From the NCBI RefSeq assembly GCF_023055435.1, contig NW_025963804.1, positions 62,001 to 126,000 on the forward strand: a stretch of 64,000 bases of DNA. The letters are read 5' to 3'. The notes below the pieces were generated by a model. That model made no database searches and had not been told where the DNA came from. It worked only from the letters and a program-made list of their open reading frames with translations. Of the stretch, positions 4,680 to 33,830 are shown piece after piece. Both the position numbers and the translations under genes were made by a program. The stretch's first letter is position 1, and each line of letters starts with the position of its first letter. This stretch comes from Haliotis rufescens. Lineage: Eukaryota.

Positions 4680-6878
4680 GGTTGCAGCATTGCACTGAAA
4701 GTTGACTGCCTACAGCACCAGACATTAAGGATTGCCTATCTCTCCATAGATAGATGGTAATAATGATGATGATGATGACGAAAATTCTTTGGTAATTGAA
4801 ATGTCTGACAAAACCTAAACACTATCCTCCAGCTTGTGAGTTTTTATGGGTTTCTTTAGATGTTTGTAAGTGCACAGTAAATATAACAATTACCTTTGTC
4901 TAATTTGCTTTTAATCCGTACGACACTTGGTTTTTGTAACGAATTTACCCAATGAAATGATTGAATTATATTATAAAACTGCAGGGCAAACACAAAATGA
5001 TATTTACTTTGGCAGGTTACCAGACAATTGAGCTCTGTTCAACAGATTTATTTTTAAAAGTTGCGTCATTTGTTTGAGAACCGCACCGTGACGTTCATGG
5101 AAGTCGTTTTAGTATGTGTGTATTATTGTAAACAAGAGGCCATATACATCCATACTATTCAAAATCACTCCACTGAAAGACATCAAGGGAAATCCTACTT
5201 CTAGTTTCGTTCTCCATCTGTTAGTCACACATAATCTGTATATGGGTGTAAACAAACTCCATATTTGGCATGTAACAGATCAATATCATTCCTTGAATAC
5301 GACACTCAGACATGGGCAGTTTGCCAGGGTGTCTTGTAAAGGGAGATAACCATGGTTGCTGTTGTTCAGGTGGGCGTAAATGGACCTTAGTTCTAAAAAT
5401 ACCACGTACCTGCATACTGATGTCATATCTATCCATGCAGTTTATATAAATAAAACATTTCATTGCCATGATTGCTCTCTGTGTTACGTTCCTTAAATAT
5501 TGTTTGGGTAACCTAGTGGTTATTACGTTCGCTCGTCACACAAAAGGCAGGATTCTATATTAGTTTCCATATTTTAATAAACTATTTCTCTATATGGAGT
5601 ATCAAACGACCATATTTTTTATTCAGTTGTACATCACCTATATTCGTTATAAACTACATGTGTATCTGGCCAGGTGATGTGAGGCGACCCAAAGTCGTTC
5701 CAGGATTCTCTGATTGTTGGTTTGAATATCAGATTCTTCCTGATTATGATCCATGGTTTGTACCTATTGTATATTGTACATGTTACACATACTGATGGAC
5801 AAAATTAACGGAACACAGCACAATATCGAAGAATATCATTTACTTCTGTTTCCAATTAAAAAGACATGCAACAGTTTGTCACTGAGGGTAATTCAGACAC
5901 TGATGCGTTTAACACATTGCCAAATAGTGTCTCGTCATCGTCAGGCACTCTCCGACTTACAATTGTTCCCCTATATTTGTTCACAGTATATACACACTCC
6001 CATTAGCCTCCGGTTGTCAACTATGTATATGCCTGACTTTTCTAAAGATTGTATAATAATTAAGAACCCAATGGGGATGCGAAGGGGGAGGGGTTAACTA
6101 TGAGACAGAGAACCATAAACGGAGATGTCCAACTATCAATATGACTGTTGCTTGATGAACCATTACGAACCGGTTTATACAGATGCTAACAGTATTGACA
6201 ACTGGTTTCAGTGAACTCGGTTCTATAACTCTTGTAGACCGCGTTATATAAATACATGTTGGATATATTTTGCGAATAAACTTTCATTTGTATTATTGGG
6301 TTAACGTTAATATCTACAATACCGAAACATATCAAGCACTTAAAAGAGTTCATTGTTCTATACAGTTATGGGGAATGAGAACTCCATTGTCGTAACTCTC
6401 AGTTCTATGAAATACATTGTAAGGGACAATCTCGCGATCCTGACTTTTGGAAACACGTTAAATATGTAAAAAATGTGAGGATTCGGCCAAATCTTCTTTC
6501 TCGCACATTTTGTATAATTATATTTAGCGTGTTTCTATAGGTCACGAATGTCCCTTACAGTATTCCATACAAATGCTTTCCGACGCATGTCAGCCGTGAT
6601 ACATAATGTGTTACTTAAACATGAACATAGGTAGGTCAAGGCTGTCTGAATATTTATTCCCAAACTAATAATGGATTTACGCAGTAGCTCATTGTATAAC
6701 CTGACAATCACATTCGTAGAAATGGCTATTCCAGTTTCACTTTTTCGATTTGGTTTGTCTTCAAATGTTGCGTGTACAGTAAATGATGTTCCAGATGTCA
6801 GGTAGCCAGACTCAGTTCCTGTTCTCGCCTCCGTCACCGTCTACTGTTGTCTAGTATTGTCTGGATCTGCTGTCCAAA

Positions 6879-6959
6879 ATGTCTAACCGACGCTATGGAT
6901 ACTTCGAGTGTGATGAATGTGGTTCATCCTGGGAGAGTGCCCATGTCTACTGCGATGGT
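6879..6959 (+). pseudogene. ZAR1-like type B, exon 1 only
   Basis: Matches the 27715 exon, then jumps to sequence equivalent to ~30327; donor and exon 2 deleted. Confidence 0.8.
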
Positions 6960-7305
6960 AGAGCATGGGCTTGTGTTAGTGAGTGAGTGGGTTGATGCCG
7001 CTTTGAACAGCAATTTACTTATACCGCGGCTTGATTTTGGAGAAAAGCTCGTTTGGCGTTAAATACTCTGGTGAAAAAATCACGGATACTAAGGGTCACT
7101 ACCGGCCAGTGTACACAGATGCTCAGTGTTGACGACTAATATCGGCCCTTTCATACTTTGTAGCCCTCCTTATGTAAATACATGTAGGATATGTTTGACA
7201 AATATACCTTCATTTGTAGCGTTACTTATATATCTGATATTTACTTTGTACACAGTGGTTTCTGCTGAGTAATATGATCTCCGTTATCTGTCTTCAAGAT
7301 ACACC

Positions 7306-7609
7306 GGGTGGGGCTGGGGTGGGGATGTGGGGACGAGTGGCCCAGTCGTATAAGACGCCGCGATTCGCTGTGCAGAGTTGCGTCCCTTGGGCACGCCAGA
7401 AACCGATGATTGTGGGTTCGAATCCCGGTTCGCCCCGATTTTGTTTCTAGGTTTGTCAGCACCATACCCGTGCTCGTGGGTTTCACCGAAGTGGTAAACG
7501 TCTGAGACCTTCATCACTCCGGCCTTCTTCCCACATTAAGCTGACACGCCGCGATATAACTGGAATAATGTTAAAAGCGGCGTTAAATCCAACTCACTCA
7601 CTCACTCAC
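7306..7609 (+). mobile_element. tRNA-derived SINE family 2
   Basis: A box TGGCCCAGTCG, B box GGTTCGAATCC, (CACT)n tail, TSD TCAAGATACACC; duplicates near 30673, 39599 and 47608, and an inverse relative at 2380-2632. Confidence 0.8.
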
Positions 7610-8229
7610 TCAAGATACACCATCCCCAGCCCTCTCTGCATGAAGAACAGCACTGAGCCTGTTAATGGAATGTCATTTTGTTACTTGAAGCTCCACAATC
7701 TCTGCTATCCGAGCACATTCTGACCACTGGATGGTTTAGTATAGAGGGAGAAATATCGGGCACGGTTCTGTACAAAGTCATGCCTTCGAATGAGTGAGTG
7801 AGTATGGTTTTACGCCGCTTTTAGTGAGTGAGTGAGTTAAATTTTAACGTTACATCGGCAATATTTAAGCCATAACGTGACGAGACAAAATTTGACATTA
7901 ATGATATATGTTTAAACAATATTAAAATTCTCTCGTCGAAGGAGAGTTCAATAACCAGATTATCACAGATTTACGTAAAACTGTTTTGAGAGCATGTAAA
8001 AATGAATTAGGATTCACCAATACGAGATAAAAAACGGGCTAAAAGATAAAAACGAATCACCACACTAGGGACCATGGGGACTTGTACTTTTGCTACCTGC
8101 ATGGACCCAAGAAGAATTTACATCATACCTTGAGTTGTTGGCGATGATTGACAACATAGACAAACAACAATTAATACAACACATACGTATTCTACGATTT
8201 AAAAAAACATGGCAGAAATAAATATACTT

Positions 8230-9597
8230 TATTAATCAGCATCAGCCATTGTGTTACCAACGATTCCAACATGGCTGGGTTACCAACAAAAACGATGTTG
8301 TATTGGCTCGTAGAAAGAACATTTAATAATTCAATAATTACAAGTGGATGTGTTTAATTGCCTGAAGACAAGAAAGAGAATTTGAAAATATGATAAATTG
8401 CTTATATTTAGATTGTTTACTAAAGAACTCTAGCGCTGTTAATATTGCTTTTGATTCGGCCGTAAAATGGAACAGTTATCCGGAAGTCTGGAGATGTAGT
8501 CCTGGATTCAATGATGGTGGCGCTGGCAACTGTGTCACCGTCCTTGGATCCATCTGTAAATATAGATGTGAAAGTATCACATTTGTTTCTTAATTGATTA
8601 TACTCTTGTTGATAAATACGTTGATGTGTATCCATGGTGGAGAAGACAAAATCTGGGTTGTGGCTATATTTTCAAGTGTTATTTTAGCAGCAGAAATATG
8701 ATGCTTTATTCTTATACCAAGGAGCTGAGTAAGAGATGATTTTGTATTATAGAGATCGTTACAGAGAGGATTAAACACAATCGAAAGCTGGATTGGAGTC
8801 ATTAGTGTAATGTAAAGACAATTTAATTCGACGTTGCTTTAGTGACGGTTCATCAGCCTTGGGCATTTGATTTCTGTTCAACTTTTTTCTTTCTGTTTTT
8901 GTTAATTTTCGGTGATGCGAGGTCAGAGGTGATGCTTCTGAATGATTCTCAGAAATAGTCGGTCGAAGGACAGACGAAGTTTGGACAGCTTGATCAGATC
9001 TGACCCTTGTCAAATCAGTCTGACACCGGACAGATGAAGTTTGAACAGGACGGATGAGTGCAACAGAGTAATTCATAACTGAAGGAGTTGTGGCTTGACA
9101 AGTTGTTTAGCATCTGCAAATAAAATGTTTCTTTCCGCACTTTATTTTCATAAATTTGGTTTCGGTTTGCCAAGTAGGGCAGGATTTAGAAGATGCCATG
9201 TGTTAGCCATCACAGTTGGAACATTTGAGGTCTTCATGACAATCCATGCCCTCACGGTTGGCATCACAACGCTGACAAACCACGGGGCGAGTACAGGTTT
9301 TTTAACCATGTCCATACTGTTGGCGTCTATAGCACCGGAGTGGATTGGGGACATACACATCCACCCCGATGTTAACATAACCATGTTTAGTTGATTGTGG
9401 AACTGAAGCACGGGCAAAAGTGAATAGATAAGTTTTGTTAGAACAATGTTTGATTTTTCATCTTTGCGAGTAAAACGTTTGATGTTTACTTATTAAACAA
9501 CTTGATTCTTAAGGTCAGATACAATTTCCTCTTCTGAACATATCCGCCAAGGAACGAGTCCAGTCACTAACAATGCCACGAGAAGAGTGTGTTCTGT
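8230..9597 (-). mobile_element. Internally deleted I-clade (RNase H-containing) LINE remnant
   Basis: ORF1-like YVPNPLRCY..QQYGH; RNase H IFTDGSK and W.PSHVGIVGN..AD; many stops. Confidence 0.8.
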
Positions 9598-9874
9598 GGC
9601 CCAATCTATCGATCTTGTAGAGTGTTTGAATGATTATTGATTGTGATTGTAACAAATAGGGCTTGACTGACACCTCGGCCTGTAATCAGCTATTGTAGGG
9701 AATCAATGATAGGCTTACAGATCAGTCGTCTCACGTCCATGAGAGGGAGATTGAAGCGGACAGAGGGTGGATCACCCTGATTTTGACCCAGTATTGATAC
9801 AGGTCCGGTGGATCAACAGTATGGTAATATATTGGTGAGGCCGGGTTGATGAATGATTATGTGACCCAGTATTA

Positions 9875-10304: not shown

Positions 10305-10462
10305 TTTGGTCCGGTATTGATAAAAGACGAGTTGATCATCCCTAATGTGACCCGGCATTGATAAAATTCGGGTGGATCATCCTTAATGTGACCCGGTGTT
10401 GATAAAAGTAGGGTGGATCATCCTGTATTGGCCCGATGTTGATATAAGTCGGGTGGGTCATC
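10305..10462. repeat. ~41-42-bp minisatellite that received the Maverick insertion
   Basis: Units like GTGACCCGG..TTGATAAAAGTCGGGTGGATCATCC; uninterrupted copy at ~42610-42790. Confidence 0.75.
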
Positions 10463-10972
10463 AGTAGTAACCTGCATCGGTAGTGGACCACCAGGATTTC
10501 TGGGACCGCTCAGATTTCTGGGACCAAGATGGCGGCACATCCGTTTCCGGTCACGTGACCTGCGCAGTGCATGATGGGTACCTGCGCGCGCATGCAAGAT
10601 GGCGTCGCATCCGTTTCCGGTGGCGCGCGCATGCAAGATGGCGTCGCATCCGTGTCCGGTGGCGTACGCATGGAAAGAGGGCGTCGCTTCCGTTTCCGGG
10701 GAGGAGGAGGAGGGATAGGGGGAAAACCCGGAGAAGCGCCCGTACGAGGGGAACAAGATCGACAGGGTTGTTGTTCTTGTGTTGTTCTAAAAATAGAAAT
10801 AGACGTGGGGTGGTGGTGGGGGTGGTGAAGGGAGGGAGGGAGGGAGGGAGGGAGGGAGGGGAGAAGGGGTGGGTTCACGGTGTCGTGTAGGGTGGGGGGG
10901 TGGGAGGGTCGTCAAAGCAAAGGAGGAAAAGCTGTCTTTCGGGAGAGATGGGTGGCCCTGAAAAGGGCCGTT
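10463..10972 (+). repeat. Left terminal inverted repeat of the Maverick
   Basis: Reverse complement of 21987-22497 apart from a few differences, mostly in the G-rich tract. Confidence 0.95.
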
Positions 10973-10974
10973 TT
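10934..10974 (-). terminator. Histone-type 3' end signal (stem-loop 10954-10969 plus HDE-like)
   Basis: Minus strand reads AAAAC GGCCCTTTTCAGGGCC ACCCA TCTCTCCCG AAAGAC. Confidence 0.85.
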
Positions 10975-10979
10975 GATGT

Positions 10980-11336
10980 TTACATGGTTGTGCATCCCAT
11001 GGTACAAAGGCACGGGTGGACTTTCATCTGTCTCCTCACAGGACACCTACTGGTGTGTGTTAACCGCCTCACGTAGGTGTCCTTGAGGATGGTCTTACAG
11101 TACACACATTCGAAAGTCCCATCCCGTACCCTTGTACCAAGGGCATAGACGGGCAGGCCCCCTTGACATCGGCCACATTGCCACGCTGGAGACCATGGGG
11201 GTAGTGGGGCTGGTGGTGATGTTTCTTTCCACCCAGGCAAAGGTTGTGCCACTGTGGTGATCTCTAAATCCCAGTTTTCTTTCAGGGGGTAGTTGTTGCC
11301 GGTGTTGTTGTTGTTGTTGTTGCTGCTACTCATCAT
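10980..11336 (-). CDS. Small zinc-ribbon protein (CxxC...CxxC), Maverick accessory gene
   Basis: 118-aa ORF with WQCGRC and FECVYC; TATA/Inr cassette directly upstream and histone-type stem-loop 10 nt after the stop. Confidence 0.65.
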   Translation of the reverse strand: MMSSSNNNNNNTGNNYPLKENWDLEITTVAQPLPGWKETSPPAPLPPWSPAWQCGRCQGGLPVYALGTRVRDGTFECVYCKTILKDTYVRRLTHTSRCPVRRQMKVHPCLCTMGCTTM

Positions 11337-11364
11337 GATGCTTTCTTTTCAATCAATTTTTACA

Positions 11365-11660
11365 AGTGACACTGACCCACTCGAATCCACGCTTGTTTTA
11401 TAGGAGAGACACTGACACCCTGCCTCCCGGTTGGTTCGCCAGGCCGCAGCTCCGATTGGCTCGTTCCGGGGCCCGGCCCGCACCTCGGTTTTCCAAAACG
11501 GACCGACCCCTGTGTTTCTTTTCCATAGGAAATGGATTTTACCATGGGAGAGAAAGCACAACCCCGGTTCGACCAATCAGAGCCCCGCCTGGTCCGAGCG
11601 CCGCTTCTGATTGGTCGACCACCCAGGCTTCGGATTGGTCCGATTTCGATCCGTTTTTTT
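11365..11660 (-). promoter_or_regulatory. Repeated CCAAT/TATA/Inr promoter cassette, copy 1
   Basis: Several CCAATC boxes; TATAAAA (11402-11396) 29 nt before the A of TCAGT (11373); points at the zinc-ribbon ORF. Confidence 0.8.
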
Positions 11661-12314
11661 TTCTTCTTTGGTAGCCTTGGTATTTTTTGAGGTAGACGGT
11701 CGTCTGAATGGTAAAGGAAGGTGGACCTTCATAGGTAGACATGAACGTGGGAATGCCTACGCGATGTACGTGGTGACACCCCCATGCCAATCGGAATGTC
11801 ATGTGTGCGTGTGTGTGTGTGTATGTCTTCAAACAGACGTTGACGTTGATGCATAGAATAACGTGTGGTCAGTCAAAACGTGGTGTCCTGTGTGTGTGTA
11901 TCGAGTCGTGTCGTAGTGAGATGAATAGAGAAAGATCGATACACCTACGTGACGTTTGCACACGTCATGGACTTCGTGTCGCGATGTGAACGTCATGGTT
12001 GTACTTTGTGTGTTGTCATGCAAACGTCGTACCCTGTGCGTGTTTTCAAATTATTATTATTATTATTTAAGGATACCGAGGTGTTGACACTCGTGTAGGT
12101 CGACAGGCGTACTGTGACGCGTGTGTTCATGCACACGTGATGTTTGACGTGGTGTACTACGTGTCTCTATGGATCTATGGATCTAACTCTATTTATATTT
12201 ATTTATATCTATGTATTGTATTTTTAGACGTGTGCCTCCAAGAGGTCTAGGGGGAGGATGTGGGTTCTTTGTTTTGGAGGGGCAGAGGGTTTAGCAAAGC
12301 AAAGGAAGAAAGTT

Positions 12315-12355
12315 GTCTTTTGGGTGAGATGGGTGGCCCTGAAAAGGGCCGTTTT
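12315..12355 (-). terminator. Histone-type 3' end signal (stem-loop 12335-12350 plus HDE-like)
   Basis: Minus strand reads AAAAC GGCCCTTTTCAGGGCC ACCCA TCTCACCCA AAAGAC, ~125 nt after the BIR gene stop. Confidence 0.85.
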
Positions 12356-12475
12356 GGGGGAAGAAAAACTTTTCTGCTGCTGTCCACTTGGGGTTCCAAC
12401 CAAGAAAAGAAAAACATTTGAACGGGAACTTGAACGGGAACTTGAACGGGAACGCAGGACACGGGAAACGTCCTC

Positions 12476-12940
12476 CTAGGCAGCCGGCCGTGCTACGTCA
12501 TTCGTGTACCTCTGTTTCTCTTCGCAGAGATAGTGCAGTTGTAGCTTCTTCTGGTGTTTCACCAGCCCGGTTAGCTTGAGGTAATCGCAGTCTGGGGACC
12601 ACTTGTGATGTGCCGCCCAAGGATCGTCGTGGGGTGCCCATTGTCTCAGCCGCACCCCACATTGGAAACAGCACACCCCATCGGCACCCTGAGTGTAGAC
12701 AAAGCCCGCATGGGCCATCTCTTCAGCAGTCTGATACATTTGCGTGGGCCACGTCTCAAACGAAGCGAGCCTTCTTTCAAAGCGTAGATAATAGTGCGAT
12801 GGTGTTTGACTGAGCAGTGACACCGCCTCCTCGGCATGACTCTTACTCCAGCATTCACGAGGTTCTGCACTATCCATCACCGCATCTTCGCCACGTGTCG
12901 TCGTCGTCGTCGTCGTACCACTCTTCTTTGTTTCAGCCAT
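12476..12940 (-). CDS. Single-BIR inhibitor-of-apoptosis (IAP)-like protein
   Basis: RLASFETWP...MAHAGFVY...VCCFQCG..L.QW..HDDPWAAHHKWSPDC is a canonical BIR fold with Cx2Cx16Hx6C; no RING. Confidence 0.92.
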   Translation of the reverse strand: MAETKKSGTTTTTTTRGEDAVMDSAEPRECWSKSHAEEAVSLLSQTPSHYYLRFERRLASFETWPTQMYQTAEEMAHAGFVYTQGADGVCCFQCGVRLRQWAPHDDPWAAHHKWSPDCDYLKLTGLVKHQKKLQLHYLCEEKQRYTNDVARPAA

Positions 12941-12960
12941 TCTAGATGATTTTATGTAAC

Positions 12961-13255
12961 ATACACTGACCCACTCGAATCCACGCTTGTTTTATAGGGG
13001 AAGAACCGGATCGAAACTCACTGCTTCCTGGTTGGTCCAAAACGCAGCGCACCGATTGGTTCGTTCCGGGGCCTGGTCCGCACCTCGGTTTTCTAAAACG
13101 ACCCGACCCTTGTGTTTCTTTTCCATAGGAAATGGATTTTACCATGGGAGAGAAAGCACAACTCGGTTCGGGTGCTGTCTTCTGATTGGTCGTTGCTGTC
13201 TTCTGATTGGTCGGCCATCCAGGCTTCGGATTGGTCCGATTTCGATCCTGTTTTG
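12961..13255 (-). promoter_or_regulatory. Promoter cassette, copy 2 (between the divergent BIR gene and polB)
   Basis: Same core; TATAAAA (12996-12990) 29 nt before the A of TCAGT (12967). Confidence 0.8.
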
Positions 13256-13329
13256 GGGAAGGGTTGTCCATCCCTCAGACGTTCAGCACCTCTTAGAGTA
13301 CAGACGTTCATCAGATACACATCGCTATA

Positions 13330-16300
13330 ATGACGAGCAACCAAAGTACGCCCTATCGTTTGGAGAGGAAAGATATCACCCGCTCCAGACGGTTAAGAAC
13401 TGCTAATCATACCTATCGTTTGACTTTCAACCCAGACTACTTGGACACCGTACCACCGGAACGCGTCCCCATGGAACTGCCAGCTTTATTTGACAGGGTG
13501 ATCGATGACTTTTATGAACAGATATCAGGTCAGAAGGGAGATCGTATTGGTCTAGGTATCGATCATCCCGCTTTGAACACACCCATACGGATACCCTTTC
13601 GACGTTTTGAAGATCTCCATGGGCTAACTATTTTGCAAGCCGTGGAAAAAGTCCAACAGTCCAACAAAGACCTGAACATCGATGCCACCATGGATGTGAC
13701 CTTAGTACACGTCGCAGATCCCAACAGGGTAGGATCGGGCAGTGGTGCTCCCCGGCTGAAAAACGTGATTGGACTCGAAGCTTTTTTAACACGCAAAAAG
13801 TGCATCGTACGGATCAAGAACGAAGATCAATCCTGTTTGGCACGGGCCCTGGTGGTGGCACAGCATTATGCCCACAAGCCTCACCCTCTGACCCCAGCAT
13901 GGACCGCCCAGCGAAAGAGACTGACGAGAACGGATCGCGTCGACGTTCAAGGCATACGGGCACGGGCCTTGTTTCGAAGCCTTGGCCTGCCCGAAGGACC
14001 CTGTCGGGGTCTGGACGACCTCGCACGCGTGGGACGAACCTTGACCCGTCTGCATTATCAACTGAAAGTCTACAGTCAAGAGGTGGGTCAGAGACTGTTG
14101 TACAAGTGTGATGAGACTCCACCCCACGCCACCGTGCTGCATCTATACCATCATGATCAGCACTACGATGTCATCACTTCCATGCCCGCTTTTTATGGCT
14201 CTAACCATTACTGCGAATGCTGTGACAAACGTTACGACCATCCCGAAAACCATCCCTGCACCAAGGAATACCGCTGTTACCGCTGCTTCTACTCTAGTTA
14301 TTGTGGACCCCAGGAAGAGCACGGGATCCCTTGCTTGACATGTCAAGGTTGGTTCCCCAATCCAACGTGTTACACCCGACATCTCCAGTCACCGTCAGAG
14401 GGAAAACCCAGCGCCTGTCAATCGATTCACAGGTGCCCGAACTGTTTTCAGTTGGTCCGCGTCTTGGAGACCCCCATGGCTCACCACGCGTGCTTCGATG
14501 AAGAACATCCCTGCTTGGTGTGCCGAGAACCCATGACCCCAGATCATCGCTGTTACATGACGCCTCTCGGTGAAGAAAACGAGGAGGAGGAGGGGGAGGA
14601 AGCGGAGAAGGAGGAGGAGGGTGAAGAGGAACAACATCCCCTACGAGACCATGTTCAATACGCCTTCTACGATTTTGAATGCATGCAAGACACGGGGGAA
14701 CACATTCCAAATTTGTGCGTGGTGCAACTAGGATGTGGACGATGCATCAGTGAAGTGAGCAAGAACTTGTGCGAACACTGTCCATGGAGAGAAGAAGGGT
14801 ATGGTCCCAGCCTTGAGATCGTGTTTCGAGGCCCCACCACGCGACATGATGTGTGTGTTTGGTTGACCACGTTGTCTGAAATACCCAAGAAGAAGCCCCA
14901 CCCAGAGGAAGAGGAGGACAGCACACGCAAGGGGACGACAGCTCACCTGGGGAAAAAAAGAAAACGGGATGACACCCCCTCAAGAAAGCACGCTTCCAAA
15001 TGACAGGCATCACCCCAGCAGGAGGGGGAGGAGTTGGGGGAAGAGGGGAAGGAGATGGAAGAGGGGGAAGAGGGGGAAGAGGCCATGGAAGTGGAGAAAA
15101 CAAAGAAGCCAAAGAACAAGAACACCTCCTGTCATACAGTCCCGAAGGAGGATCGCATTTATGTGATGGCCCATAATGCACGATCCTATGATTTACACTT
15201 AGTCCTGAAGGGTCTGTCCCCCCTCCTGGTGACACTCCCCACCAAGATTCGGCATGGCCAACAAATTTTGCAAATGACCCTGGGACGGTTATGTTTCGAA
15301 GACAGCTTAAATTTCATCCCTTACCCCCTGAAAGCCTTTCCCAAGAGCTTTGGGCTGAAAGAAATGAAGAAAGGGTACTTTCCACACTTTTTCAATACGA
15401 GAGTCAACCAGACCTACAGAGGTCCCTATCCACCAGCCGTCACGTACGATCCCGATGGCATGTCTCCCGCGGAACGCACAGCCTTCCTCCAGTGGCATAC
15501 CCAAAAAGTGCAAGAAGGAGCCTTGTTCGACTTACAAGGAGAACTTTTAACCTACTGCCAAAGCGATGTGGACATTTTGAGACGGGGATGCGCCGACTTC
15601 CGACAGAACGCCATCCACTCGGTGGGCATGGATCCCTTTGTGGAAGTGATGACAGCTGCAGCGTTCACCATCAAATCCTTCCGAAAACACGACCTGAAAC
15701 CCAATACCATCGCCATTCTCCCACCTCAAGGCTACCAACCCAAGAGAAACAATTCCCAGGCCTGTATGCACTGGCTCCACTATCTGATGGAAACGGACCC
15801 CCATCTGCACCTCCAGCACGCCAGGAATGGCGGTGAAAAAGAGTTCACGTGTGGAGGGGGTCAACATCGGTACACCGTGGATGGCTACGATCCAGCGACA
15901 GGCACCGTCTACGAATTCCTGGGCTGTTTCTGGCATGGGTGCCAGGCCTGTCACAAGACCCGACGTGGAGAACCGCATCCCGTCCTGGGCTCGTCGTTGG
16001 GAGCCCGTTACACCGACACCCACTACCGCTTGAGTCTCTTGAGTCAACACCCTGAGGTGAAACGGATCGTCACCCTGTGGGAGCACGAGTTTACGAAAAT
16101 GCAACGGGAGGACTCCGCACTGCGTGCTTTCTTGCAGGGACCCCCCTGTATCCACGTCCCCGGGCTGCTCAACCCTCGCGATGCCTTCTATGGAGGATGC
16201 ACCAATGCGACGCGATTATGCTACGAAGCCCAAGAAGGTGAAACCATCAAGTACATCGATATTTGTTCCCTTTATCCCTACATTTGTAAGACCGGAGTGT

Positions 16301-17580
16301 TTCCCACGGGACACCCGACCCTTCTCCATCAACCCCCTGTGGACACGTTGTTTGAACTGAAAGGCCTGATCCAATGCCGTGTCTTACCCCCGAAACGACT
16401 TTACCATCCGCTACTGCCTTACAGATCGGGTGGCAAACTGCTCTGTCCTTTGTGCCGCACGTGTGCCGATACCCGGTCAGACTCCCCCTGCGAGCACACG
16501 GACGAAGAGAGGTCATGGGTGGGGACGTAGGCCACCGTAGAACTCCAGGAAGCCGTGAAGAAGTATGACTACCGGGTGCTTCAGATCTACGACGTTTGGC
16601 ATTTTGACACCTTTGCACAGCATGACCCCGACACCCAGCAAGTGGGACTCTTTGACACTTACATCGATCGACATTTCAAGGAGAAGCTCGAAGCCAGCGG
16701 ATACCCCGAAGGATGTACGGATCACGACGCGTACATCCAGGAGATCTACGACAAAGAAGGCATTGGGTTGGACAAGGACCGCATCGAAAAAAATCCAGGA
16801 CGTCGCACGATTGCCAAGATGCAACTGAATTCGCTCTGGGGCAAGTTTGGGCAACGGGTAGACTACAGTCAGAACGTGTATATGAACGATCCTGTACAGT
16901 ACTTTGCCTTGTGGAGGGATGAACGCAATACCATCGAGGATGTGGTCGTTGTCAACGAACACATGGTGGAAGTGACCTATACCCAGCAGAAAGAATTCCA
17001 AACCCCTCATTCTCATTTCAACGTCGCCATCGCTGCTTGGGTCACTGCCCAAGCACGTCTCAAGCTGTACGAGACCCTTGCCCTGGTGGACCGCAGGGTG
17101 TTGTACTTTGACACGGACAGTGTCATTTACATTCATCGACCCCACGACGCGAATCCAGAGCTGGGTCATTCGTTGGGTGAGTTTACGGATGAACTGGACG
17201 GAAACACCATCGAGACGTTTGTGTCGGGAGGCCCCAAAAACTATGGCTACGAGTTAATGAACCCCAGACCCGATGGAACGCGCACGACCTGCAAAGTGCG
17301 AGGGTTCACTTTGAATTACCGAAACCAACGCCATCTCAACTTTGACACCATGAAAGGACTGATACTGGGACAACGGCCTGGGAAAGAGGAGGAGAAAATC
17401 AGTTTGGATTACCCTCATCAGATCATTCGAAAAGGCCCTCGGCACGAAAACGCACTCGTGACCCGACCCACCCGAAAAGACTATCGTACCGTGTACGACA
17501 AGCGACGTCTCGTCTACGACGACATCACAGGGCTACCTGTAGACACGCTCCCCTTTGGGTACAGAGACGACTTTCACTAA
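13330..17580 (+). pseudogene. polB: Protein-primed family B DNA polymerase (Maverick pPolB) with two in-frame nonsense codons
   Basis: ORFs 13330-15003, 15034-16530 and 16555-17580 are all in one frame, separated by TGA (15001) and TAG (16528). Motifs: OTU-like (IKNEDQSCLARA...HYDVI), Cys-rich region, ExoI YDFE, ExoII HNARSYD, ExoIII YCQSDV, VSR-like insert (VDGYD..VYEFLGCFWHGC), PolA DICSLYP, PolB KMQLNSLWGKFGQ, PolC YFDTDS, GPKNY, KVRGF. Confidence 0.95.
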
Positions 17581-17629
17581 AATTTTTCATGACAGCGGAT
17601 CGAAACTGAATCGACATGGACCCCTACAG

Positions 17630-17890
17630 AAAAAAACGGATCGAAATCGGACCAATCCGAAGCCTGGATGATCGACCAATCAGAGGCCGCGCTCGGGCCA
17701 GGGTGGCCTCTGATTGGTCGAACCGAGGTTGTGCTTTCTCTCTCACGCTACAAGCCTAACCCTATGGAAAAGAAACACAAGGGTCAGTCCAGTTTGGAAA
17801 ACCAAGGTGAAAGTCAGGCCCCGGAACGGGCCAATCAGAAAGCAGGACCTCCGTGGCTTTTAATACGACCGACGCTCTCCGGTCATCACT
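17630..17890 (+). promoter_or_regulatory. Promoter cassette, copy 3 (diverged)
   Basis: GGATCGAAATCGGACCAATCCGAAGCC...CCTATGGAAAAGAAACACA; TATA degenerate; upstream of the 18083 gene. Confidence 0.7.
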
Positions 17891-18082
17891 TTTCACTGAA
17901 CGGACCAAGCAACAACATCGTCCCCTCTGATTGATGTTCCTCACGTTGTGTTGGTTGTTGGCGTTTTATCTGGAAGAAACGCGTGTTTGGAGAGAGTACC
18001 ATCAAGTGTTGACGTACCTCCGTGAAGACTTGGAAAGAAACAACAACAACAACAACAACGAACAGAACATCCGGACAACATC

Positions 18083-19310
18083 ATGTCGAACAACATGTCG
18101 AAACGGTTGAATGACAAGACACGAAGCGACATGAGTGGCCAAGGAAGCAGTGGAGATGGGAACGGTAACATGACTGCTGAACTGTGGGGTGAAGTGTACG
18201 ACTTGCTGTGTTTAAAGATGAAGACCGACGACGCGTACGCCAAGTTACGTGCGAAGGGCGACAACCTGATGTGCGACCAGATACGTTCAAAGATGAGGAA
18301 GCTGACTGAACCCGAGAAAGGCACATCCAAGAAGACGATCAAGAAGATCCAGAAGAAAAAGACACGCAAACCCACAGCCGTGGTGACCCCCACAGCAACG
18401 GCAACACCCCCCACCCCACCCCCACCCCCACAGCGCCAGTCCCCACCACCACCACCACCACCACCACCACAGCAGCCACAGCAACCACGACTGTGGCGAC
18501 AACAGACATCGACACGAGGGGGACATCCTTTTTGAAACCTGCCACACCTGCAACGCCTGCAAAAAGACGATCACGGAAGAAATTATCTCTGAAGATCTCT
18601 CCTCAAGAACAACTGTAAGTACCCTGCTCTTCTTTGTCTCAGTCATTCTTGATGTGATTCATATGCATGACCTATGCCTATCCTAAATGGACTCTGTCCT
18701 TATGATTGACAGGACCCCTGATGTCAGTTCAGCCCAGTCCGTGCTAGAACAGTGGTGGGAATAAACCCCTCGGGAGCCCACCTATTCACCGAATGCCCCT
18801 GTGACGATGGCGACGGGTGACCTCGATGATCATGAAGCGCTCAAGATGGCCACTCTCCCTTCCATGGATCTGGACACGCTTCCCCTGCTCGAGGCTTCTT
18901 GGTCACCAGCATCCCCGGAAGAGGTTCATGTCTACTCCTCAGGTACGCCCATGGTTTGCGACGATGATGATGATGACAACGTTGACCTGGATCCTTATGG
19001 AGAAGCTCAACTCACTCCCCTACAACGCGAATGTCGTGTTTGCCGACACAACAACATGTTAAGATACATCAGTTGCAACAGCGGGCAAGTGATGTGTCAT
19101 GCCTGTGAGCTGGAGCTCATAGACTGTACTTGTAGTATGTTGACCTATGACAGCATAGTGACACATGATGACATGCCTATCGCATCTGAGGATCACATCT
19201 TATGGTGATCCTCCTCTTCACTCGAAGAACTTTGTCAACACGCCAGCTGCAACCGTGATCAAGTGATGTGTCATGTCTGTTTCAGGGAGGCCATAGACTG
19301 TACGTGTTGA
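18083..19310 (+). pseudogene. Decayed spliced Maverick gene: basic/low-complexity N-terminus, acidic tract, duplicated Cys module
   Basis: Candidate GT-AG intron 18615-18712 joins a KRRSRKK frame to the 18801 frame. This needs one frameshift in the C/CCA tract (~18410-18470). In-frame stops at TAA 18762 and TGA 19206; the SCNxxQVMCHxC..xIDCTC module occurs twice; AATAAA at 19701. Confidence 0.5.
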
Positions 19311-19628
19311 ACGGTTGGGCCTCTCACAGGTTTGAGGGAGGACCACCTCTTAGGGACTTGAAGATGGAAGAGCTTGAAGATGGAAGAGGAAAACGTTGTC
19401 GCGTTATTGTTGTTGTTGTTGTTGTTGTTGTTGTAGGGACATGCAAAGCACTCCCTCCTCCATTGACTTTTCGTATTTCCATTGTATCGGGTTGTGATTG
19501 GTTTTTTCATGATTAAACAGTGATTGATTGAACTGACTCTTTGTGTCTTGATTGATCTCAACTCCAAAAGAGTGCCGAACCGAGGGTAGAGGTTGAGTTG
19601 AGATGTCGTTGACGTCGTCTGTCTGTCC

Positions 19629-19666
<38 letters not shown>

Positions 19667-19890
19667 GCCTCTGTCATGTCAGTGCACACCAAAGTGAAGA
19701 AATAAAATTAAAAATAGATAAAAGAGAAAGGCCATGCTTGAAAGATCAGCTGCCTGGTGTCAGTCATTCCAGGACGCATCGATCCCCCCTACACCCCTCC
19801 CCGTGTGCCATGTCATGTCATGTCATGGATCATGTCATGGATCATGCCGTGTGTCCGTCAACCCAAACACAGGATGACGTCACGTGATGA

Positions 19891-20128
19891 GGTGTAGGAG
19901 ATGGAGAGTTTCATAAAAGCTAAAGTCATGACCTTCCGTTGAAGGGTGTAGGGTGGAGAGTTTCATAAAAGCTAAAGTCATGACCTTCCGTTGAAGGGTG
20001 TAGGGTGGAGAGTTTCATAAAAGCTAAAGTCATGACCTTCCGTTGAAGGGTGTAGGGTGGAGAGTTTCATAAAAGCTAAAGTCATGACCTTCCGTTGAAG
20101 GGTGTAGGGTGGAGAGTTTCATAAAAGC
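19891..20128 (+). repeat. 52-bp tandem repeat (~4.5 units) upstream of the second BIR gene
   Basis: CATAAAAG recurs at 19912, 19964, 20016, 20068 and 20120. Confidence 0.95.
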
Positions 20129-20170
20129 AGGCGAACCCTCAGACCTTCTTTCAGTGAAGTCACCGTCATC

Positions 20171-20695
20171 ATGGAGCAAAGACGTTCTATGAATGCCATG
20201 TCATCCTCCCGAGATGTCGTCACCGATTCCGAGTGGGTGTCTGAAAAGGCGAGAGAACAAGAAGCGAGAAAACGTTCACTCTTGATGGACGACACACTCT
20301 TGATTGACGACAGGTGTCGACACGGTGACGTTCTGGAGAGACCTTTTCCTTCCTTGTGTCAACCTTCTCATCCCCACTATGATTCATTTCAAGAACGTCT
20401 GAGGTCTTTTAAAACGTGGCCTCAACAGATGACCAAGACCCCTTATGACATGGCCATGGCTGGCTATTTCTATCCAGGACGAGGGGACTGTGTGACCTGT
20501 TATTGCTGCGGTGTGGCACTCCGCCAATGGGAAGCCACAGACCAACCCTGGAAAGAACATCTGAAGCATGCCAAAGTCCCCTGCGAATACTTGTGTGTGT
20601 TTTGTCCTGATGGAGAAGTGAACGAAAAATACAGACGTTTGGTGTCCCAAGAAGCACGGAAACGAAGAGTCGAGTGTCTTGTTCACCCCAAGTGA
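20171..20695 (+). CDS. Second single-BIR IAP-like protein
   Basis: ERLRSFKTWP...MAMAGYFY...VTCYCCG..L.QWEATDQPWKEHLKHAKVPC; no RING; ATTAAA at 20838. Confidence 0.92.
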   Translation: MEQRRSMNAMSSSRDVVTDSEWVSEKAREQEARKRSLLMDDTLLIDDRCRHGDVLERPFPSLCQPSHPHYDSFQERLRSFKTWPQQMTKTPYDMAMAGYFYPGRGDCVTCYCCGVALRQWEATDQPWKEHLKHAKVPCEYLCVFCPDGEVNEKYRRLVSQEARKRRVECLVHPK

Positions 20696-20929
20696 CAACG
20701 TTTCTTTTTTTTTTTCAAAGTGGTCAGACGTTCCTACCCTCGCGGTCACCCCTCCCTCGTGTTCACAAAAATCACAGGGATGTCCCCCCTCATCCTGTGA
20801 CTTTTGTTTTGTGGTGTTGGTTCATGTGATCAGGGGGATTAAATTTTTTGTTAAAAACTCATAGTCGTGTTATGTTGTCTGTAGGATGAAGAAAAAACAA
20901 AACAGGATCGAAATGCACATCCCGATAAA

Positions 20930-21195
20930 AAACCGGATCGAAATCGGACCAATCCGAAGCCTGGGTGGTCGACCAATCAGAAGCGGCGCTCGGACCAGGC
21001 GGGGCTCTGATTGGCCGAACCGGGGTTGTGCTTTCTCTCCCATGGTAAAATCCATTTCCTATGGAAAAGAAACACAGGGGTCGGTCCGTTTTGGAAAACC
21101 GAGGTGCAGGCCAGGCCCCGGAACGAACCAATCGGGGGCGCTGCCTGGGGAACCAATCAGGAAGCAGGGTGTCAGTGTCTCTCCTATAAAAACAA
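20930..21195 (+). promoter_or_regulatory. Promoter cassette, copy 4
   Basis: Near-identical inverse of copy 1, ending CCTATAAAA ~45 nt before the CCHC ATG. Confidence 0.8.
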
Positions 21196-21230
21196 AACAA
21201 GAGCGAAGCCACTCACACACACTGCATTCT

Positions 21231-21869
21231 ATGAAACCCATCATGTCAGCTCGATACAGTTGTAGGATGTGCCAGACCGACAGTCACAGTTACCTGTACT
21301 GCCCTGAAGTGACATGTACCGAGTGCCACACTCAAGGTCACCGTCACTATGTCTGTCCGAAGCTGAACAGTCAAGAGAAGCAGGAGAAGCAGGAGAAGCA
21401 GTACCAGGGCCCCTGTTACAACTGTGAAGCCCTGGGTCATTTCGCTGCAGATTGCCCAGAACCCCGTCGAAAGAAGACTCCCCATCGCCTGGACCGCTGT
21501 TACAACTGTGGAGCCCTGGGTCATTTCGCTGCAGATTGCCCAGAACCCAGTCGAAAGAAAACGTTAGCAACACCGTCCACGTCGACACCCGTGGCATCCG
21601 TGGCAACCGTGACCCCCGTGGCCCCCGTGACACCCGTGACACCCGTGGCACAAGTGCTTCATCTCATCGAAGACATGCATTCCGATGTCCTCGACCTAAA
21701 AGAATGTCTCACACAACTCCGGGTAGGCATCACACCTCGTCTAGAGAAAAGAAAACGGAACAGGTCCCCCTCACGAAAACACGTTTCAAAGCGCCGACGA
21801 CACCTTCCGTCCGAGGATGAGATGGAAGTAGAGGATGGAGAAGTGAGATCCTCTGAACAAAGTGACTAA
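21231..21869 (+). CDS. 4x CCHC zinc-knuckle protein with NLS and C-terminal EDGEV motif
   Basis: Four Cx2Cx4Hx4C knuckles, KRKRNRSPSRKHVSKRRR, then EMEVEDGEVRSS. Start placed at the first ATG after the TATA (~21185), not at the track start 20886. Confidence 0.85.
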   Translation: MKPIMSARYSCRMCQTDSHSYLYCPEVTCTECHTQGHRHYVCPKLNSQEKQEKQEKQYQGPCYNCEALGHFAADCPEPRRKKTPHRLDRCYNCGALGHFAADCPEPSRKKTLATPSTSTPVASVATVTPVAPVTPVTPVAQVLHLIEDMHSDVLDLKECLTQLRVGITPRLEKRKRNRSPSRKHVSKRRRHLPSEDEMEVEDGEVRSSEQSD

Positions 21870-21947
21870 CGCATGGGTCATGCTGCCCCACTGTTTTTAC
21901 CCGTTTCCCATCGTTTGCAGTTTTTCCAGTGTTCCAGTGTTCCTGCC

Positions 21948-21978
<31 letters not shown>

Positions 21979-21984
21979 TGTTTT

Positions 21985-22025
21985 CCAACGGCCCTTTTCA
22001 GGGCCACCCATCTCTCCCGAAAGAC
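21985..22025 (+). terminator. Histone-type 3' end signal (stem-loop 21990-22005 plus HDE-like)
   Basis: CCAAC GGCCCTTTTCAGGGCC ACCCA TCTCTCCCG AAAGAC, ~120 nt after the CCHC gene stop. Confidence 0.85.
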
Positions 22026-22497
22026 AGCTTTTCCTCCTTTGCTTTGACGACCCTCCCACCCCCCACCCCCCACCACACCGTGAACCCACCCCTTCTCCCC
22101 TCTCCCTCCCTCCCTCCCTCCCTCCCTCCCTTCACCACCCCCACCACCACCCCACGTCTATTTCTATTTTTAGAACAACACAAGAACAACAACCCTGTCG
22201 ATCTTGTTCCCCTCGTACGGGCGCTTCTCCGGGTTTTCCCCCTATCCCTCCTCCTCCTCCCCGGAAACGGAAGCGACGCCCTCTTTCCATGCGTACGCCA
22301 CCGGACACGGATGCGACGCCATCTTGCACGCGCGCGCCACCGGAAACGGATGCGACGCCATCTTGCATGCGCGCGCAGGTACCCATCATGCACTGCGCAG
22401 GTCACGTGACCGGAAACGGATGTGCCGCCATCTTGGTCCCAGAAATCTGAGCGGTCCCAGAAATCCTGGTGGTCCACTACCGATGCAGGTTACTACT
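21987..22497 (-). repeat. Right terminal inverted repeat of the Maverick
   Basis: Reverse complement of 10463-10972. Confidence 0.95.
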
Positions 22498-23891
22498 GTC
22501 ATCCTTTATTTGACTCATTGTTGATAAATGTTAGCAAAGGATTACACAAACAGAATACACCAAACATGCTTTATATTCATTCATTCAAGTGTACATGCAT
22601 ATTTACAGGTCAACAGATAAACCAGTTTCACACCGGTGACCATCAGCTGACTGTCTTGTCACCTTTCACAATTAAACTGTAATGACCGCCCTGGCTCCGC
22701 TCGTCCATCTCACATCGCTAATGTGGTTCCCTCGAGTGTCGTATCTACACAAAGACATGGAGACTTCCTTTAAGTTCCCAGTGAATAGTCGCGCGTGTGA
22801 TATACAGCGCCACACCAGCTAGGGAGGGTTATATCTCTTCCCTGGTCACCTAGCACCCCCGGGACACGGTTCGCGGCGCCTCAGACGACTGGGCCACCCG
22901 TGCCCCCTGTCACAGATGACCAACTGTTGACATCGGTATATGTTATCGCGCATCCACATACCACGTAAGCAGAGTGTCAGGTGTTATTCTATCCCGGTGT
23001 CTGACGTATGCCAACTGTCTGTCTTGATGTTGTGCAACAAAACACCCGTCTCTTATAGCCATGCCCTGTACTGTTGTATATGACTCTGCTGAAATTCGAG
23101 AAGAATGTCTCGTGATAAGGTGGGCGTGGTAACTCGTTTTTCTACGTTTACCAGTCACATAATCTGATTTCGTCATTGCCAAGATAAGCTGTATGTGTTA
23201 CATAATATATGGTGTAGTCTTCCCATTTAAAACATACTGTTTGCTGCATTTCTTAATGACGTCATAATCCCATCGCTGTTTTCTGAAAAATGTAAACAGG
23301 CATATAAATTTATTCTATATTTATTAGGGATTAATAGGTGTCTCAATGATTCAGAGTTGCGTCCCTTAGGCATGAGAGGCAACGATGATCGTGGGTTTAT
23401 CACAGCCAAATCCGTGCTCCGTGGTAAAAATCTTGACCAGTATTATTTCAGTATTTCACTACATGAAGCCTTTTCGTTTTGTTTGTTTGTTTGTTGTTTA
23501 ACGCCCCACTCGGCAATATTCCAGCTATATGACGGCGGTCTGTAAATAATCGAGTCTGGACGTGACAATCCAGTGATCGATTTCATGAGCATCTTTCCAC
23601 GCAATTGGGATGCGATGACATACATCAACCAAGTCAGTGAGCCTGACCACCCGATCACGTTAGTCGTCTCATGATATATGTATACTGTAATGTATACAGT
23701 TCAAAGTCTACAGTCTACTGTATACAGTTAAACATCTCACTCCCCCATTTATGTATCATATAAACTAATAAGAAATGTAAATGTTTTCCGAGAAACTGTC
23801 ACATACACGTATATATTACTGTGAGGAGCCAACAACGTGTCAGCTCTTTTCTACATATCCGCCATCGTGCTGCTGTTGTCTGCTGTCCATG

Positions 23892-29813: not shown

Positions 29814-31599
29814 ACAGACCTCCACATATGTAATCTATGAAGTGAACTTCTGTAGTATGCTTGATAGTAAGGCACAGTACTTGGTGTTATTTACATGTTA
29901 CAGGTACTGATTTACAAAAAATGAGGGGACAAAACTCAATATCGGAGAATATCATTTACTGCTGTTTCAAATAAAAGAACGACATGCTATAAGTTATGAT
30001 ACTGAAATTCACGCTTCTAGTGTATTGAATACATTCCACATAATGTCTGTCATCGACAGACATTCTTCCACTTCCAACCGTTCCCTTATTCTATCTTTCA
30101 GTATATACACACTCTCATCTGCCGCTGGTTGTTTACTATCTATATTCCGTTTCCAGGACCTCTACAAAATATACCTTTTCTACCTACGCTTCATTACCCA
30201 ACAAGACCTTGTTTCTGTGTAATATCATTCCATGATTAAATCTTAAAATACACAATGGCTATTTCTTTGCTTTTAACGAACACGACATCGTCATCACCAT
30301 TGTTCCAGTATTGTGTGGATCTTGTTTGAGCAAGGGCTTGTGTTAGTGAGTGAGTGGGTTGATGCCGCTTTGAACAGCATTTTACTTATATCGCGGCTTG
30401 ATTTTGGAGAAAAGCTCGTTTAGCGTTAAATACTCTGGTGAAAAAATCACGGATACTAAGGGTCACTACCGGCCAGTGTACACAGATGCTCAGTGTTGAC
30501 GACTAATATCGGCCCTTTCATACTTTGTAGCCCTCCTTATGTAAATACATGTAGGATATGTTTGACAAATATACCTTCATTTGTAGCGTTACTTATATAT
30601 CTGATATTTACTTTGTACACAGTGGTTTCTGCTTAGTAATATGATCTCCGTTATCTGTCTTCAAGATACACCGGGTGGGGCTGGGGTGGGGATGTGGGGA
30701 CGAGTGGCCCAGTCGTCTAAGACGCCGCGATTCGCTGTGCAGAGTTCCGTCCCTTGGGCACGCCAGAAACCGATGATTGTGGGTTCGAATCCCGGTTCGC
30801 CCCGATTTTGTTTCTAGGTTTGTCAGCACCATACCCGTGCTCGTGGGTTTCACCGAAGTGGTAAACGTCTGAGACCTTCATCACTCCGGCCTTCTTCCCA
30901 CATTAAGCTGACACGCCGCGATATAACTGGAATAATGTTAAAAGCGGCGTTAAATCCAACTCACTCACTCACTCACTCAAGATACACCATCCCCAGTCCT
31001 CTCTGCATGAAGACCAGCACTGAGCCTGTTAATGGAATGTCATTTTGTTACTTGAAGCTCCACAATCTCTGCTATCCGAGCATATTCTGACCACTGGAGG
31101 GTTTAGTATATAGGGAGAAATATCGGACACGGTTCTGTACAAAGTCATGCCTTCGAATGAGTGAGTGAGTATGGTTTTACGCCGCTTTTAGTGAGTGAGT
31201 GAGTTAAATTTTAACGTTACATCGGCAATATTTAAGCCATAACGTGACGAGACAAAATTTGACATTAATGATATATGTTTAAACAATATTAAAATTCTCT
31301 CGTCGAAGGACAGTTTAATAACTGAGTATCACAGATTTACGTAAAACTGTTTTGAGAGCATGTAAAAATGAATTAGGATTCACCAATAGGGGATAAAAAC
31401 GGGCTAAAAGATAAAAACGAATCACCACACTAGGGACCATGGGGACTTGTACTTTTGCTACCTGCATGGACCCAAGAAGAATTTACATCATACCTTGAGT
31501 TGTTGGCGATGATTGACAACATAGACAAACAACAATTAATACAACACATACGTATTCTACGATTTAAAAAAACATGGCAGAAATAAATATACTTTATTA

Positions 31600-33830
31600 A
31601 TCAGCAACAGCCATTGTGTTACCAACGATTCCAACATGGCTGGGTTACCAACAAAAACGATGTTGTATTGGCTCGTAGAAAGAACATTTAATAATTCAAT
31701 AATTACAAGTGGATGTGTTTAATTGCCTGAAGACAAGAAAGAGAATGTGAAAATACGATTAATTGCTTATATTTAGATTGTTTACTAATGAACTCTAGCG
31801 CTGTTGATATTGCTTTTGATTCGGCCGTAAAATGGAACAGTTATCCGGAAGTCATGAAGATGTAGTCCTGGATTCAATGATGGTGGCGCTGGCAACTGTG
31901 TCACCGTCCTTGGATCCATCTGTAAATATAGATGTGAAAGTATCACATTTGTTTCTTAATTGATTATACTCTTGTTGATAAATACGTTGATTTGTTTAAG
32001 ATTTCTTCAATTTAGTTAATATTGGATCCACCTCTGGCTTTACTAACGGCCATGGTGGAGAAGACAAAATCTGGGTTGTGGCTATATTTTCAAGTGTTAT
32101 TTTAGCAGCAGATATATGATGTTTTATACTTATACCAAGGGGCGGAGTAAGAGACGATTTTGTATTATAGAGATCGTTATAGAGAGGATTAAACACAATC
32201 GAAAGCTGGATTGGAGTCATTAGTGTTATGTAAAGACAATTTAATGCGACGTTGCTTTAGTGACGGTACATCAGCCTCTACGTACAGACTTTGAATCGGA
32301 TTGGGCATTTGATTTCTGTTCAACTTTTTCCTTTCTGTTTTTGTTAATTTTCGGTGATGCGAGGTCAGAGGTGATGCTTCTGAATGATTCTCAGAAAAAG
32401 TCGGTCGAAGGACAGACGAAGTTTGGACACTCAGGTTGATCAGATCTGACCCATGTCAAATCGGTCTGACACCGAACAGATGAAGTTTGAACAGGACGGA
32501 TGAGTGCAACAGAGTAATTCATAACCGAAGGAGTTGTGGCTTGACAAGTTGTTTAGCATCTGCGAATGAAATGGGTTTTTTCCGCACTTTAGTTTAATAA
32601 ATTTGGTTTCTGTTTGCCAAGTAGGGCAGGATTTAGAAGATGCCATGTGTTAGCCATCACAGTTGGAACATTTGACGTCTTCATGACAATCCATGCCCTC
32701 ATGGTTGGCACCACAACGCTGACAAACCACGGGGCGAGTACAGGTTTTTTAACCATGTCCATACTGTTGGCGTCTATAGCACCGGAGTGGATTGGGGACA
32801 TACACATCCACCCCGATGTTAACATAACCATCTTTAGTTTTTTGTGGAACTGAAGCACGGGCAAAAGTGAATAGATAAGTTAACTTTTGTTAGAACAATG
32901 TTTGATTTTTCATCTTTGCGAGTAAAACGTTTGATTTTTACTGATTGAACAACTTGATTCTTAAGGTCAGATACAATTTCCTCTTCTGAACATATCCGCC
33001 AAGGAACGAGTCCAGTTACTAACAATGCCACGAGAAGAGTGTGTTCTGTGTTCAGAAACAACAAGGTCCATATTGGCAAATAGATTGATTAGTAAGAGAT
33101 TGAGCGTTTGTTGTTTCCGAGCACATACAACCAGAAGAGATCCAGTACGGGGTCCGGTGACATTTTAACTTCTCCAAGTGCCCTTGTATTGCTTTGGAGA
33201 TAGCAAAGGGATTTAACTTAATGGGTAGGTGATCTGAAGCTTCGATTACAAGGAATCGAGCCCAGGAATCAAGCCTCATTAGATGAACTTGTGTTTAAAT
33301 GTATTCTTTTCGAACCAGTGTGAGTGTGAGCCATGATGAAAGAAATGTGTTCTGCACCCCTTATCCCCATCCAACATGGAGTGCCAAACAAAACTCCGAT
33401 GCAGAAGTGCACCAGAATATCCAACATCCAAACACCAGGGGTACAGGGGAGGACTACTCCAGTAAATACGACATGAAGAGCTATATTTGTCTACCAAATA
33501 CAATGCAAGACTGGTTCGGCCCATGACAAGAAATTGGAGACATACAGAACTCAGAGGGCGACATCAGCAGATTAGCCCATGAGCCACCGCCTTCTGGCAT
33601 GGGATTCCAGGCAAATTTATACAATATAATTACCATTTAGAATATGCATACCCAATATTCAATAATTTCAGCATGAATGTTTTCTATACGTAGAATCGGG
33701 CCAATTCTACCACCCGTCTAGGTGAAGTAAGGGTCGAAGTGGTGTGTTGGGCAAAAGGAACACCGGTTCATGGCTCCAGTGCCCTCAACCACCAGACTCC
33801 CGACCTCTACCGACACCCACGGGGAACGCC
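31600..33830 (-). mobile_element. I-clade LINE remnant with ORF1 N-terminus and 5' region
   Basis: RFLVIEAS..PIKLNPFAISKAIQG plus the same ORF1 and RNase H pieces. Confidence 0.8.

Follow-up and report, generated by a model that had tools for sequence, protein, structure and literature searches.

Does a five-residue acidic motif near the end of a mobile-element protein serve as a ligand of the host factor ARS2, or is it a late coincidence? The motif, EDGEV, is encoded in a gene for a CCHC zinc knuckle protein in a 64,000-nucleotide stretch of Haliotis rufescens DNA, the whole of which was analysed and is called the window below. The first-pass annotation had proposed that the protein is an ARS2 adaptor or mimic, either a FLASH-like partner for histone-type 3' ends or a decoy against nuclear RNA surveillance, and this ARS2-motif reading is partly supported. 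The gene is under selection and serves a Polinton-type element as an accessory gene, and EDGEV is, with a probability of about 0.6, an incidental late match that likely has no selected role.

The element and its genes

The gene belongs to an element of about 12 kb (10462-22498) that is of Polinton type, with terminal inverted repeats (TIRs) of about 510 nt, a 6-bp target duplication and a protein-primed DNA polymerase B (pPolB). Polintons have been defined by TIRs of 100-1500 bp and a target duplication of 5-8 bp (bioRxiv 2023.08.22.554363). The main features of the element are as follows.

10462-10972, plus strand: left TIR, starting with AGTAGT; the 6-bp target duplication lies outside both ends
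10980-11336, minus strand: small Cys-rich ORF of no Pfam family, followed by a histone stem-loop (10929-10974)
12476-12940, minus strand: BIR-domain gene (Pfam), followed by a histone stem-loop (12310-12355)
13330-17580, plus strand: protein-primed DNA polymerase B (Pfam DNA_pol_B_2, pieces scanned separately)
20171-20695, plus strand: second BIR-domain gene (Pfam)
20924-21191, plus strand: upstream cassette with CCAAT boxes and a TATA, seen from inverted repeats within the element
21243-21869, plus strand: CCHC accessory ORF, 208 aa (212 aa counted from the ATG at 21231)
21987-22498, minus strand: right TIR

Two in-frame stops, which end at 15003 and 16530, break the pPolB gene of the window. 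TIRs, target duplication and pPolB are shared with the Polintons/Mavericks of the mollusc pPolB group, which have integrase and virion genes as part of one element of 13-25 kb, whereas the 12-kb window element lacks them and its accessory genes end in histone stem-loops. Specifically, integrase, ATPase, protease and capsid genes are absent from the window element and are found in a separate element with related TIRs.

The same CCAAT/TATA cassette precedes several genes of the element (11396-11663, 12963-13254, 17630-17839 and 20924-21191). A BLAST comparison with two host histone loci matched the stem-loops only and yielded no histone origin for the cassette. The host DNA of the window also contains a repeat of several kb in four to five copies at 96-100% identity (6000-9700, 30300-33200, 39200-42000 and 47200-51300) and tRNA-like SINE heads at 29093, 34322 and 52465.

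The CCHC protein and its acidic tail

The ORF encodes zinc knuckles, a Pro/Thr linker, a predicted helix, a basic stretch and an acidic tail, in this order.

21261-21539, plus strand: four zinc knuckles of the form C-X2-C-X4-H-X4-C, starting at 21261, 21315, 21414 and 21498
21762-21803, plus strand: basic bipartite NLS-like stretch (KRKR...KRRR) with a Ser-Pro site, from the sequence and an outgroup alignment
21807-21869, plus strand: acidic tail, constrained with or without the motif
21831-21845, plus strand: EDGEV, fitting the ARS2-recruitment consensus, in 16 of 86 copies

The four knuckles reported initially are present with the stated ligand spacing, and Pfam zf-CCHC matches two stretches of the protein (E=1e-13). 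Likewise, the basic stretch in front of the tail is real and a comparable stretch is found in the aligned outgroup homologue; by its pattern, 21762-21803 is a putative NLS. Positions 21813-21869 of the plus strand translate as EDEMEVEDGEVRSSEQSD, followed by a stop, which confirms EDGEV at 21831-21845. An AlphaFold model of the protein is poor (mean pLDDT 44) and renders the tail as coil (pLDDT about 39); the putative helix of residues 134-162 comes from this low-confidence model only. The best score of an ESM Atlas search was 0.77, which we treat as a lead only.

Among 11 matches in protein databases, full-length relatives are limited to five Haliotis entries; a wider search added knuckle-level matches only and revealed no full-length relative outside Haliotis. 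The homologue in H. cracherodii stops short of the motif site. The knuckles resemble those of the retroviral nucleocapsid, Air2 and Lin28 (best E=4e-6 in PDB) but there is no full-length kinship between these proteins and the abalone protein. Judging from the fold class, the protein may bind RNA, and it is likely a nuclear nucleic-acid-binding protein.

EDGEV conforms, as had been claimed, to the published consensus for ARS2 binding, which is given as [ED][ED]GE[ILV] (PMC9402713), (E/D)(D/E)GE(L/I/V) (bioRxiv 2023.07.25.550453) or [DE][DE]G[DE][ILV] (PMC10720265) and corresponds to the ELM class LIG_ARS2_EDGEI_1 (PMC10767929); a valine at the fifth position is described as merely "likely compatible" (PMC9402713). 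It is the sole match to [ED][ED]GE[ILVM] in the six frames of the 64-kb window. The pattern [ED][ED]G[ED][ILV] appears in 0.24% of shuffled versions of the whole protein and, when the last 20 residues alone are shuffled, in 0.87%, once per 203,596 six-frame codons of host DNA, and in none of the 152 other proteins retrieved by the knuckle searches. The match is uncommon by chance, yet it is not kept across the family.

Age and distribution of the motif

In its own genome, the CCHC gene has at least 180 matches (150 of 413 candidates were scored), and many of these copies contain stops. Ninety copies were examined, namely the 30 best, including that of the window, and 60 chosen from the list; four miss the site, which leaves 86. 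Their tails read EDGEV in 16 cases, probably an overestimate because the search favours window-like copies, EDEED in 32, EDEEE in five, EDGED in two and ENGEV in one, the remainder being other acidic or gapped tails. With increasing distance from the window copy, the proportion of EDGEV falls from 12/12 (below 2%) to 4/16 (2-6%), 0/28 (6-13%) and 0/30 (above 13%); all 58 copies diverged by more than 6% are devoid of it, and the older tails are EDEED or poly-E.

Distance from a motif-bearing copy is a partly circular measure, and therefore a midpoint-rooted tree was built in which the two diagnostic codons were masked; it includes 66 of the first 70 copies. This tree is a ladder that leads from poly-E copies on long terminal branches through EDEED copies to an EDGEV tip with terminal branches of 0-0.007, a direction that rests on branch lengths and the outgroup, the root being a midpoint only. 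The two EDGED copies sit in the transition zone of the tree, which has low support and mosaic haplotypes, and some motif-less copies, to judge by their short terminal branches (0.008-0.012), are about as young as the older EDGEV copies. EDGEV arose via two residue changes within an older acidic tail. Since it was put together by point mutations within the family, we reject an origin from a captured fragment of FLASH or ZC3H18.

The outgroup, with 29% identity over 143 aa (E=1e-14), is a 301-aa homologue from a complete but distantly related Polinton family in the same genome. It has the same knuckle-linker-basic-acidic layout, with an acidic tail that contains no ARS2 motif; the gene has no histone stem-loop, and AATAAA follows its stop codon. 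The polymerase segment also has a sister lineage that is as young as the window lineage; its polymerase is closely related and its terminal arms are 99% identical. The CCHC gene is absent from both of its copies examined; complementation of the gene in trans is conceivable there. The terminal arms of these two copies are 1.2-1.9 kb long and gave no stem-loop match. Neither eight further regions with pPolB nor two partner elements showed an independent gain of the motif in open frames of at least 90 codons. In the integrase-locus regions there are three matches outside the CCHC gene, all in frames of 20-119 codons.

Absence of the motif from homologues had been named beforehand as the observation that would count against an ARS2 role, and the motif is indeed largely missing there, namely from 70 of the 86 copies and from the outgroup homologue. 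Given its restriction to the youngest copies, it probably arose recently as a by-product of the older acidic tail. The same distribution bears on the opposite proposal, that the motif evolved recently under selection as a ligand of ARS2, which we consider possible but doubtful. According to that proposal, the knuckles would hold capped non-polyadenylated RNAs of the element while the tail fills the effector site of ARS2, and competition with ZC3H18, ZFC3H1 and ZC3H4 would protect the RNA against premature termination and degradation by the exosome. Fixation in the youngest lineage (12/12) speaks for it, but the motif has been missing for most of the history of the family as well as in the outgroup, and a young sister lineage does without the gene. 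The EDGEV valine is encoded by GTT in two copies and by GTG in the others, which would allow two origins of a selected motif, but a single recurrent silent change explains this equally well.

Traces of expression bear on the proposal only slightly. None of the runs recorded as RNA contains this stretch of the window, and parts of related copies are represented in contigs from four runs that are presumably RNA. In two such runs the contigs that cover the site are motif-less, whereas DNA-like runs contain both forms, a weak point against a selected ligand given that contigs drop rare variants. In one run guessed to be RNA, contigs pile up on the stem-loop region (21982-22045), and their loose ends resemble the 3' end of a BIR gene; relatives of the element may be expressed in that run.

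Selection on the gene and the odds of a neutral gain

The stops in many copies could suggest that the ORF is non-functional and that the entire tail is drifting low-complexity sequence. Selection was assessed over 160 alignable codons (codons 41-54 and 103-134 were excluded because of indels, and doubletons and multi-base changes were left out), with variants in at least three copies counted as shared. The N/S counts are 83/49 for shared and 292/76 for private variants (p=0.0003); the ORF is therefore a real gene under purifying selection. Furthermore, none of the 16 knuckle ligand positions has a substitution common to three or more copies, and a homologue is retained in the distant Polinton family, so that a non-functional ORF is hardly credible.

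The acidic tail taken alone, in copies that are mostly motif-less, gives N/S counts of 12/8 for shared and 36/5 for private variants (p=0.02), a comparison made noisier by a register shift in the old tails. The tail was under constraint well before EDGEV arose, probably because it flanks the NLS as an acidic or phosphorylated segment. Between the 12 young and the 16 middle copies, residues changed in 3 of 20 tail codons and in 17 of 139 codons elsewhere; there is no excess of tail change on this last stretch, which counts against a selected ligand.

In favor of selection is the low probability of neutral gain of both changes, which we approximate from measured rates as about 0.09% for the last branch and 0.65% for the history sampled; also, both motif-making changes take charge out of an otherwise constrained tail. 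A neutral motif would remain unchanged since its gain with a probability of 0.55-0.68, and conservation since the gain accordingly has no power to discriminate. Chance alone is thus not a comfortable answer as the source of the motif. Nevertheless, in a scan of many motifs against several accessory proteins, events with such low odds will be met. The first-pass annotation cautioned that a five-residue acidic motif can arise by chance; for this tail, the probability of neutral gain is only about 0.1-0.7%.

Could the tail engage host ARS2?

The ARS2 pocket is conserved in the host. In the host ARS2 exon, the three motif-binding lysines are identical to human K719, K722 and K734 (numbering derived from the chain offset), and their equivalents are invariant among 40 ARS2 sequences. 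ARM-bearing factors compete for a single site on ARS2, and an overexpressed ARM fragment has served as a blocker (PMC10720265). Ars2 represses transposons in the Drosophila germline (PMC12123415), and hence a motive for a decoy exists. The exact consensus match, the single contested site, the conserved pocket and the repression of fly transposons all favour a selected ligand. From the consensus, it appears fairly probable that the young tail peptide would bind ARS2 weakly in the tube.

EDGEV shares the consensus, as well as a location in the acidic terminal region of a zinc-finger protein, with the ARM proteins Red1, ZFC3H1, ZC3H18, ZC3H4, NCBP3 and PHAX. However, known ARMs are maintained from species to species and frequently occur in tandem, whereas the abalone candidate is single and limited to the youngest copies; against a selected ligand, zinc-finger decay factors carry two or three ARMs (PMC9402713) where this protein has one. 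A possible self-binding motif, DDGEI, occurs in the acidic insert of the abalone ARS2 entry (about residues 335-341).

The preferred reading is that the motif is incidental, and any ARS2 binding by the young peptide would then be incidental as well. That the element is evolving an ARS2-docking motif from scratch, such that its youngest lineage uses a decoy or adaptor to protect histone-style RNAs, is a possible but rather unlikely scenario.

FLASH likeness and histone-type 3' ends

The histone-like 3' end postulated downstream of the CCHC gene is borne out.

21985-22030, plus strand: histone 3' stem-loop with purine-rich downstream element (Rfam RF00032, 36.1 bits; fold; host alignment)

This stem-loop directly follows the CCHC gene and doubles as the inner end of the right TIR. 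The spacing of stem-loop and purine stretch is like that of the host H3, H4 and H2A ends, and there is one compensatory pair change. In total, the element contains three Rfam histone stem-loops (10929-10974 and 12310-12355 on the minus strand, 21985-22030 on the plus strand), all of which end accessory genes and have a downstream element like that of the host. No histone stem-loop was found in the distant complete Polintons examined. Six histone stem-loop matches are tabulated, with no discussion in the available text, in a scan of PLVs and virophages (PMC12220804), the supplementary tables of which may bear on novelty.

The three stem-loops, one of them immediately behind the CCHC gene, together with a tail that resembles the FLASH peptide, raise the possibility that the protein mimics FLASH in trans and links ARS2/CBC to U7-dependent cleavage. 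The tail is identical to the FLASH peptide at 6 of 13 positions in register (PMC5923425), but the abalone protein has no other feature of FLASH/CASP8AP2 beyond this likeness to the FARB peptide. Five of the six identical positions are already present in EDEED copies. When the peptide is scrambled and its acidity is thus left unchanged, ARS2 binding is lost (PMC5923425), and therefore the older tails probably did not use the ARS2 site.

Further points weigh against a FLASH mimic. The stem-loop is present in 79 of the 90 copies, including 26 of the 32 oldest, and thus predates the motif; partner segments contain the stem-loop but no CCHC gene. Pfam finds only zf-CCHC families in the protein and no match to Myb_DNA-binding_7, presumably the family of the C-terminal Myb-like domain of FLASH. 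An LDLY/LDIY-type FLASH motif (named in PMC3884669) is also absent from the 208-aa sequence. In Drosophila, the one protostome that we found tested for ARS2 in histone 3' processing, no stable binding of Ars2 to FLASH is seen, and histone 3' cleavage does not require Ars2 (PMC3884669). The late motif, the older stem-loop and the gene-less young sister lineage make a FLASH-like helper role unlikely, and with it the idea of a trans-acting partner for the histone-type ends; we regard a FLASH mimic as very improbable. Instead, the host SLBP/U7/FLASH machinery would cut element mRNAs after the stem-loop from RNA signals, and an element-encoded adaptor would be unnecessary for 3' cleavage.

A search for the host FLASH gene gave a single PF21227 match, which was rejected as it appeared to be another gene. 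We take this match to be GON4L-like. One DEGEI lies near it in a 54-codon frame that is probably non-coding. A search for the host U7 snRNA gave no match, and neither did its control.

An apparent two-segment Polinton

The family looks split into two complementary segments that share TIRs, one with pPolB and the accessory genes and the other with ATPase, integrase and likely capsid and protease genes. Ten TIR-bounded regions comprise eight of the window type, one with ATPase, integrase and likely capsid and protease genes and without polymerase, and one near-palindrome with a small gene. The capsid and protease of the partner segment are putative assignments, made from gene order and not from Pfam. 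Seven integrase loci with related TIRs have neither pPolB nor the CCHC gene in the stretches covered. Integrase lies within 25 kb of pPolB in 2 of 103 places of this family compared to 5 of 7 in distant families; these counts are lower bounds, with one row per place and an integrase group of about 38% identity excluded.

At one decayed old locus (G000:C112:36720000-36739999), pieces of pPolB occur alongside integrase, virion and BIR genes and a stem-loop, and this single case may reflect the unsplit state. A third element type (G000:C179:251700-264100) is 12.1 kb long, nearly palindromic, with the same TIR family and a 6-bp duplication; each arm contains a small Cys-containing ORF and a stem-loop, and tandem repeats are present as well. 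In the partner segment, an RNase H-bearing LINE-like fragment (5257-6297 in the numbering of that region) lies within a stretch that interrupts the ATPase gene.

No bipartite Polinton was found in the literature searched, including the available parts of PMC12220804 and PMC8502044. The two-segment arrangement is likely more novel than the motif.

Implications

In the dated copies, the change of a plain acidic tail into EDGEV can be followed stepwise, and this natural series of tails provides built-in positive and negative controls for ARS2 binding. The literature search found no viral or transposon ARS2 ligand in the texts available; if the ligand were real, it would be the first encoded by a transposon or virus in the literature searched, and would mean that the ARS2 sorting hub can be exploited by mobile DNA. 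If incidental, as we favour, EDGEV is a clean case of a convincing linear motif with FLASH-like flanks that arose late from an acidic tail. In either case, the surrounding element, an apparent two-segment Polinton with histone-type 3' ends, merits more attention than the motif.
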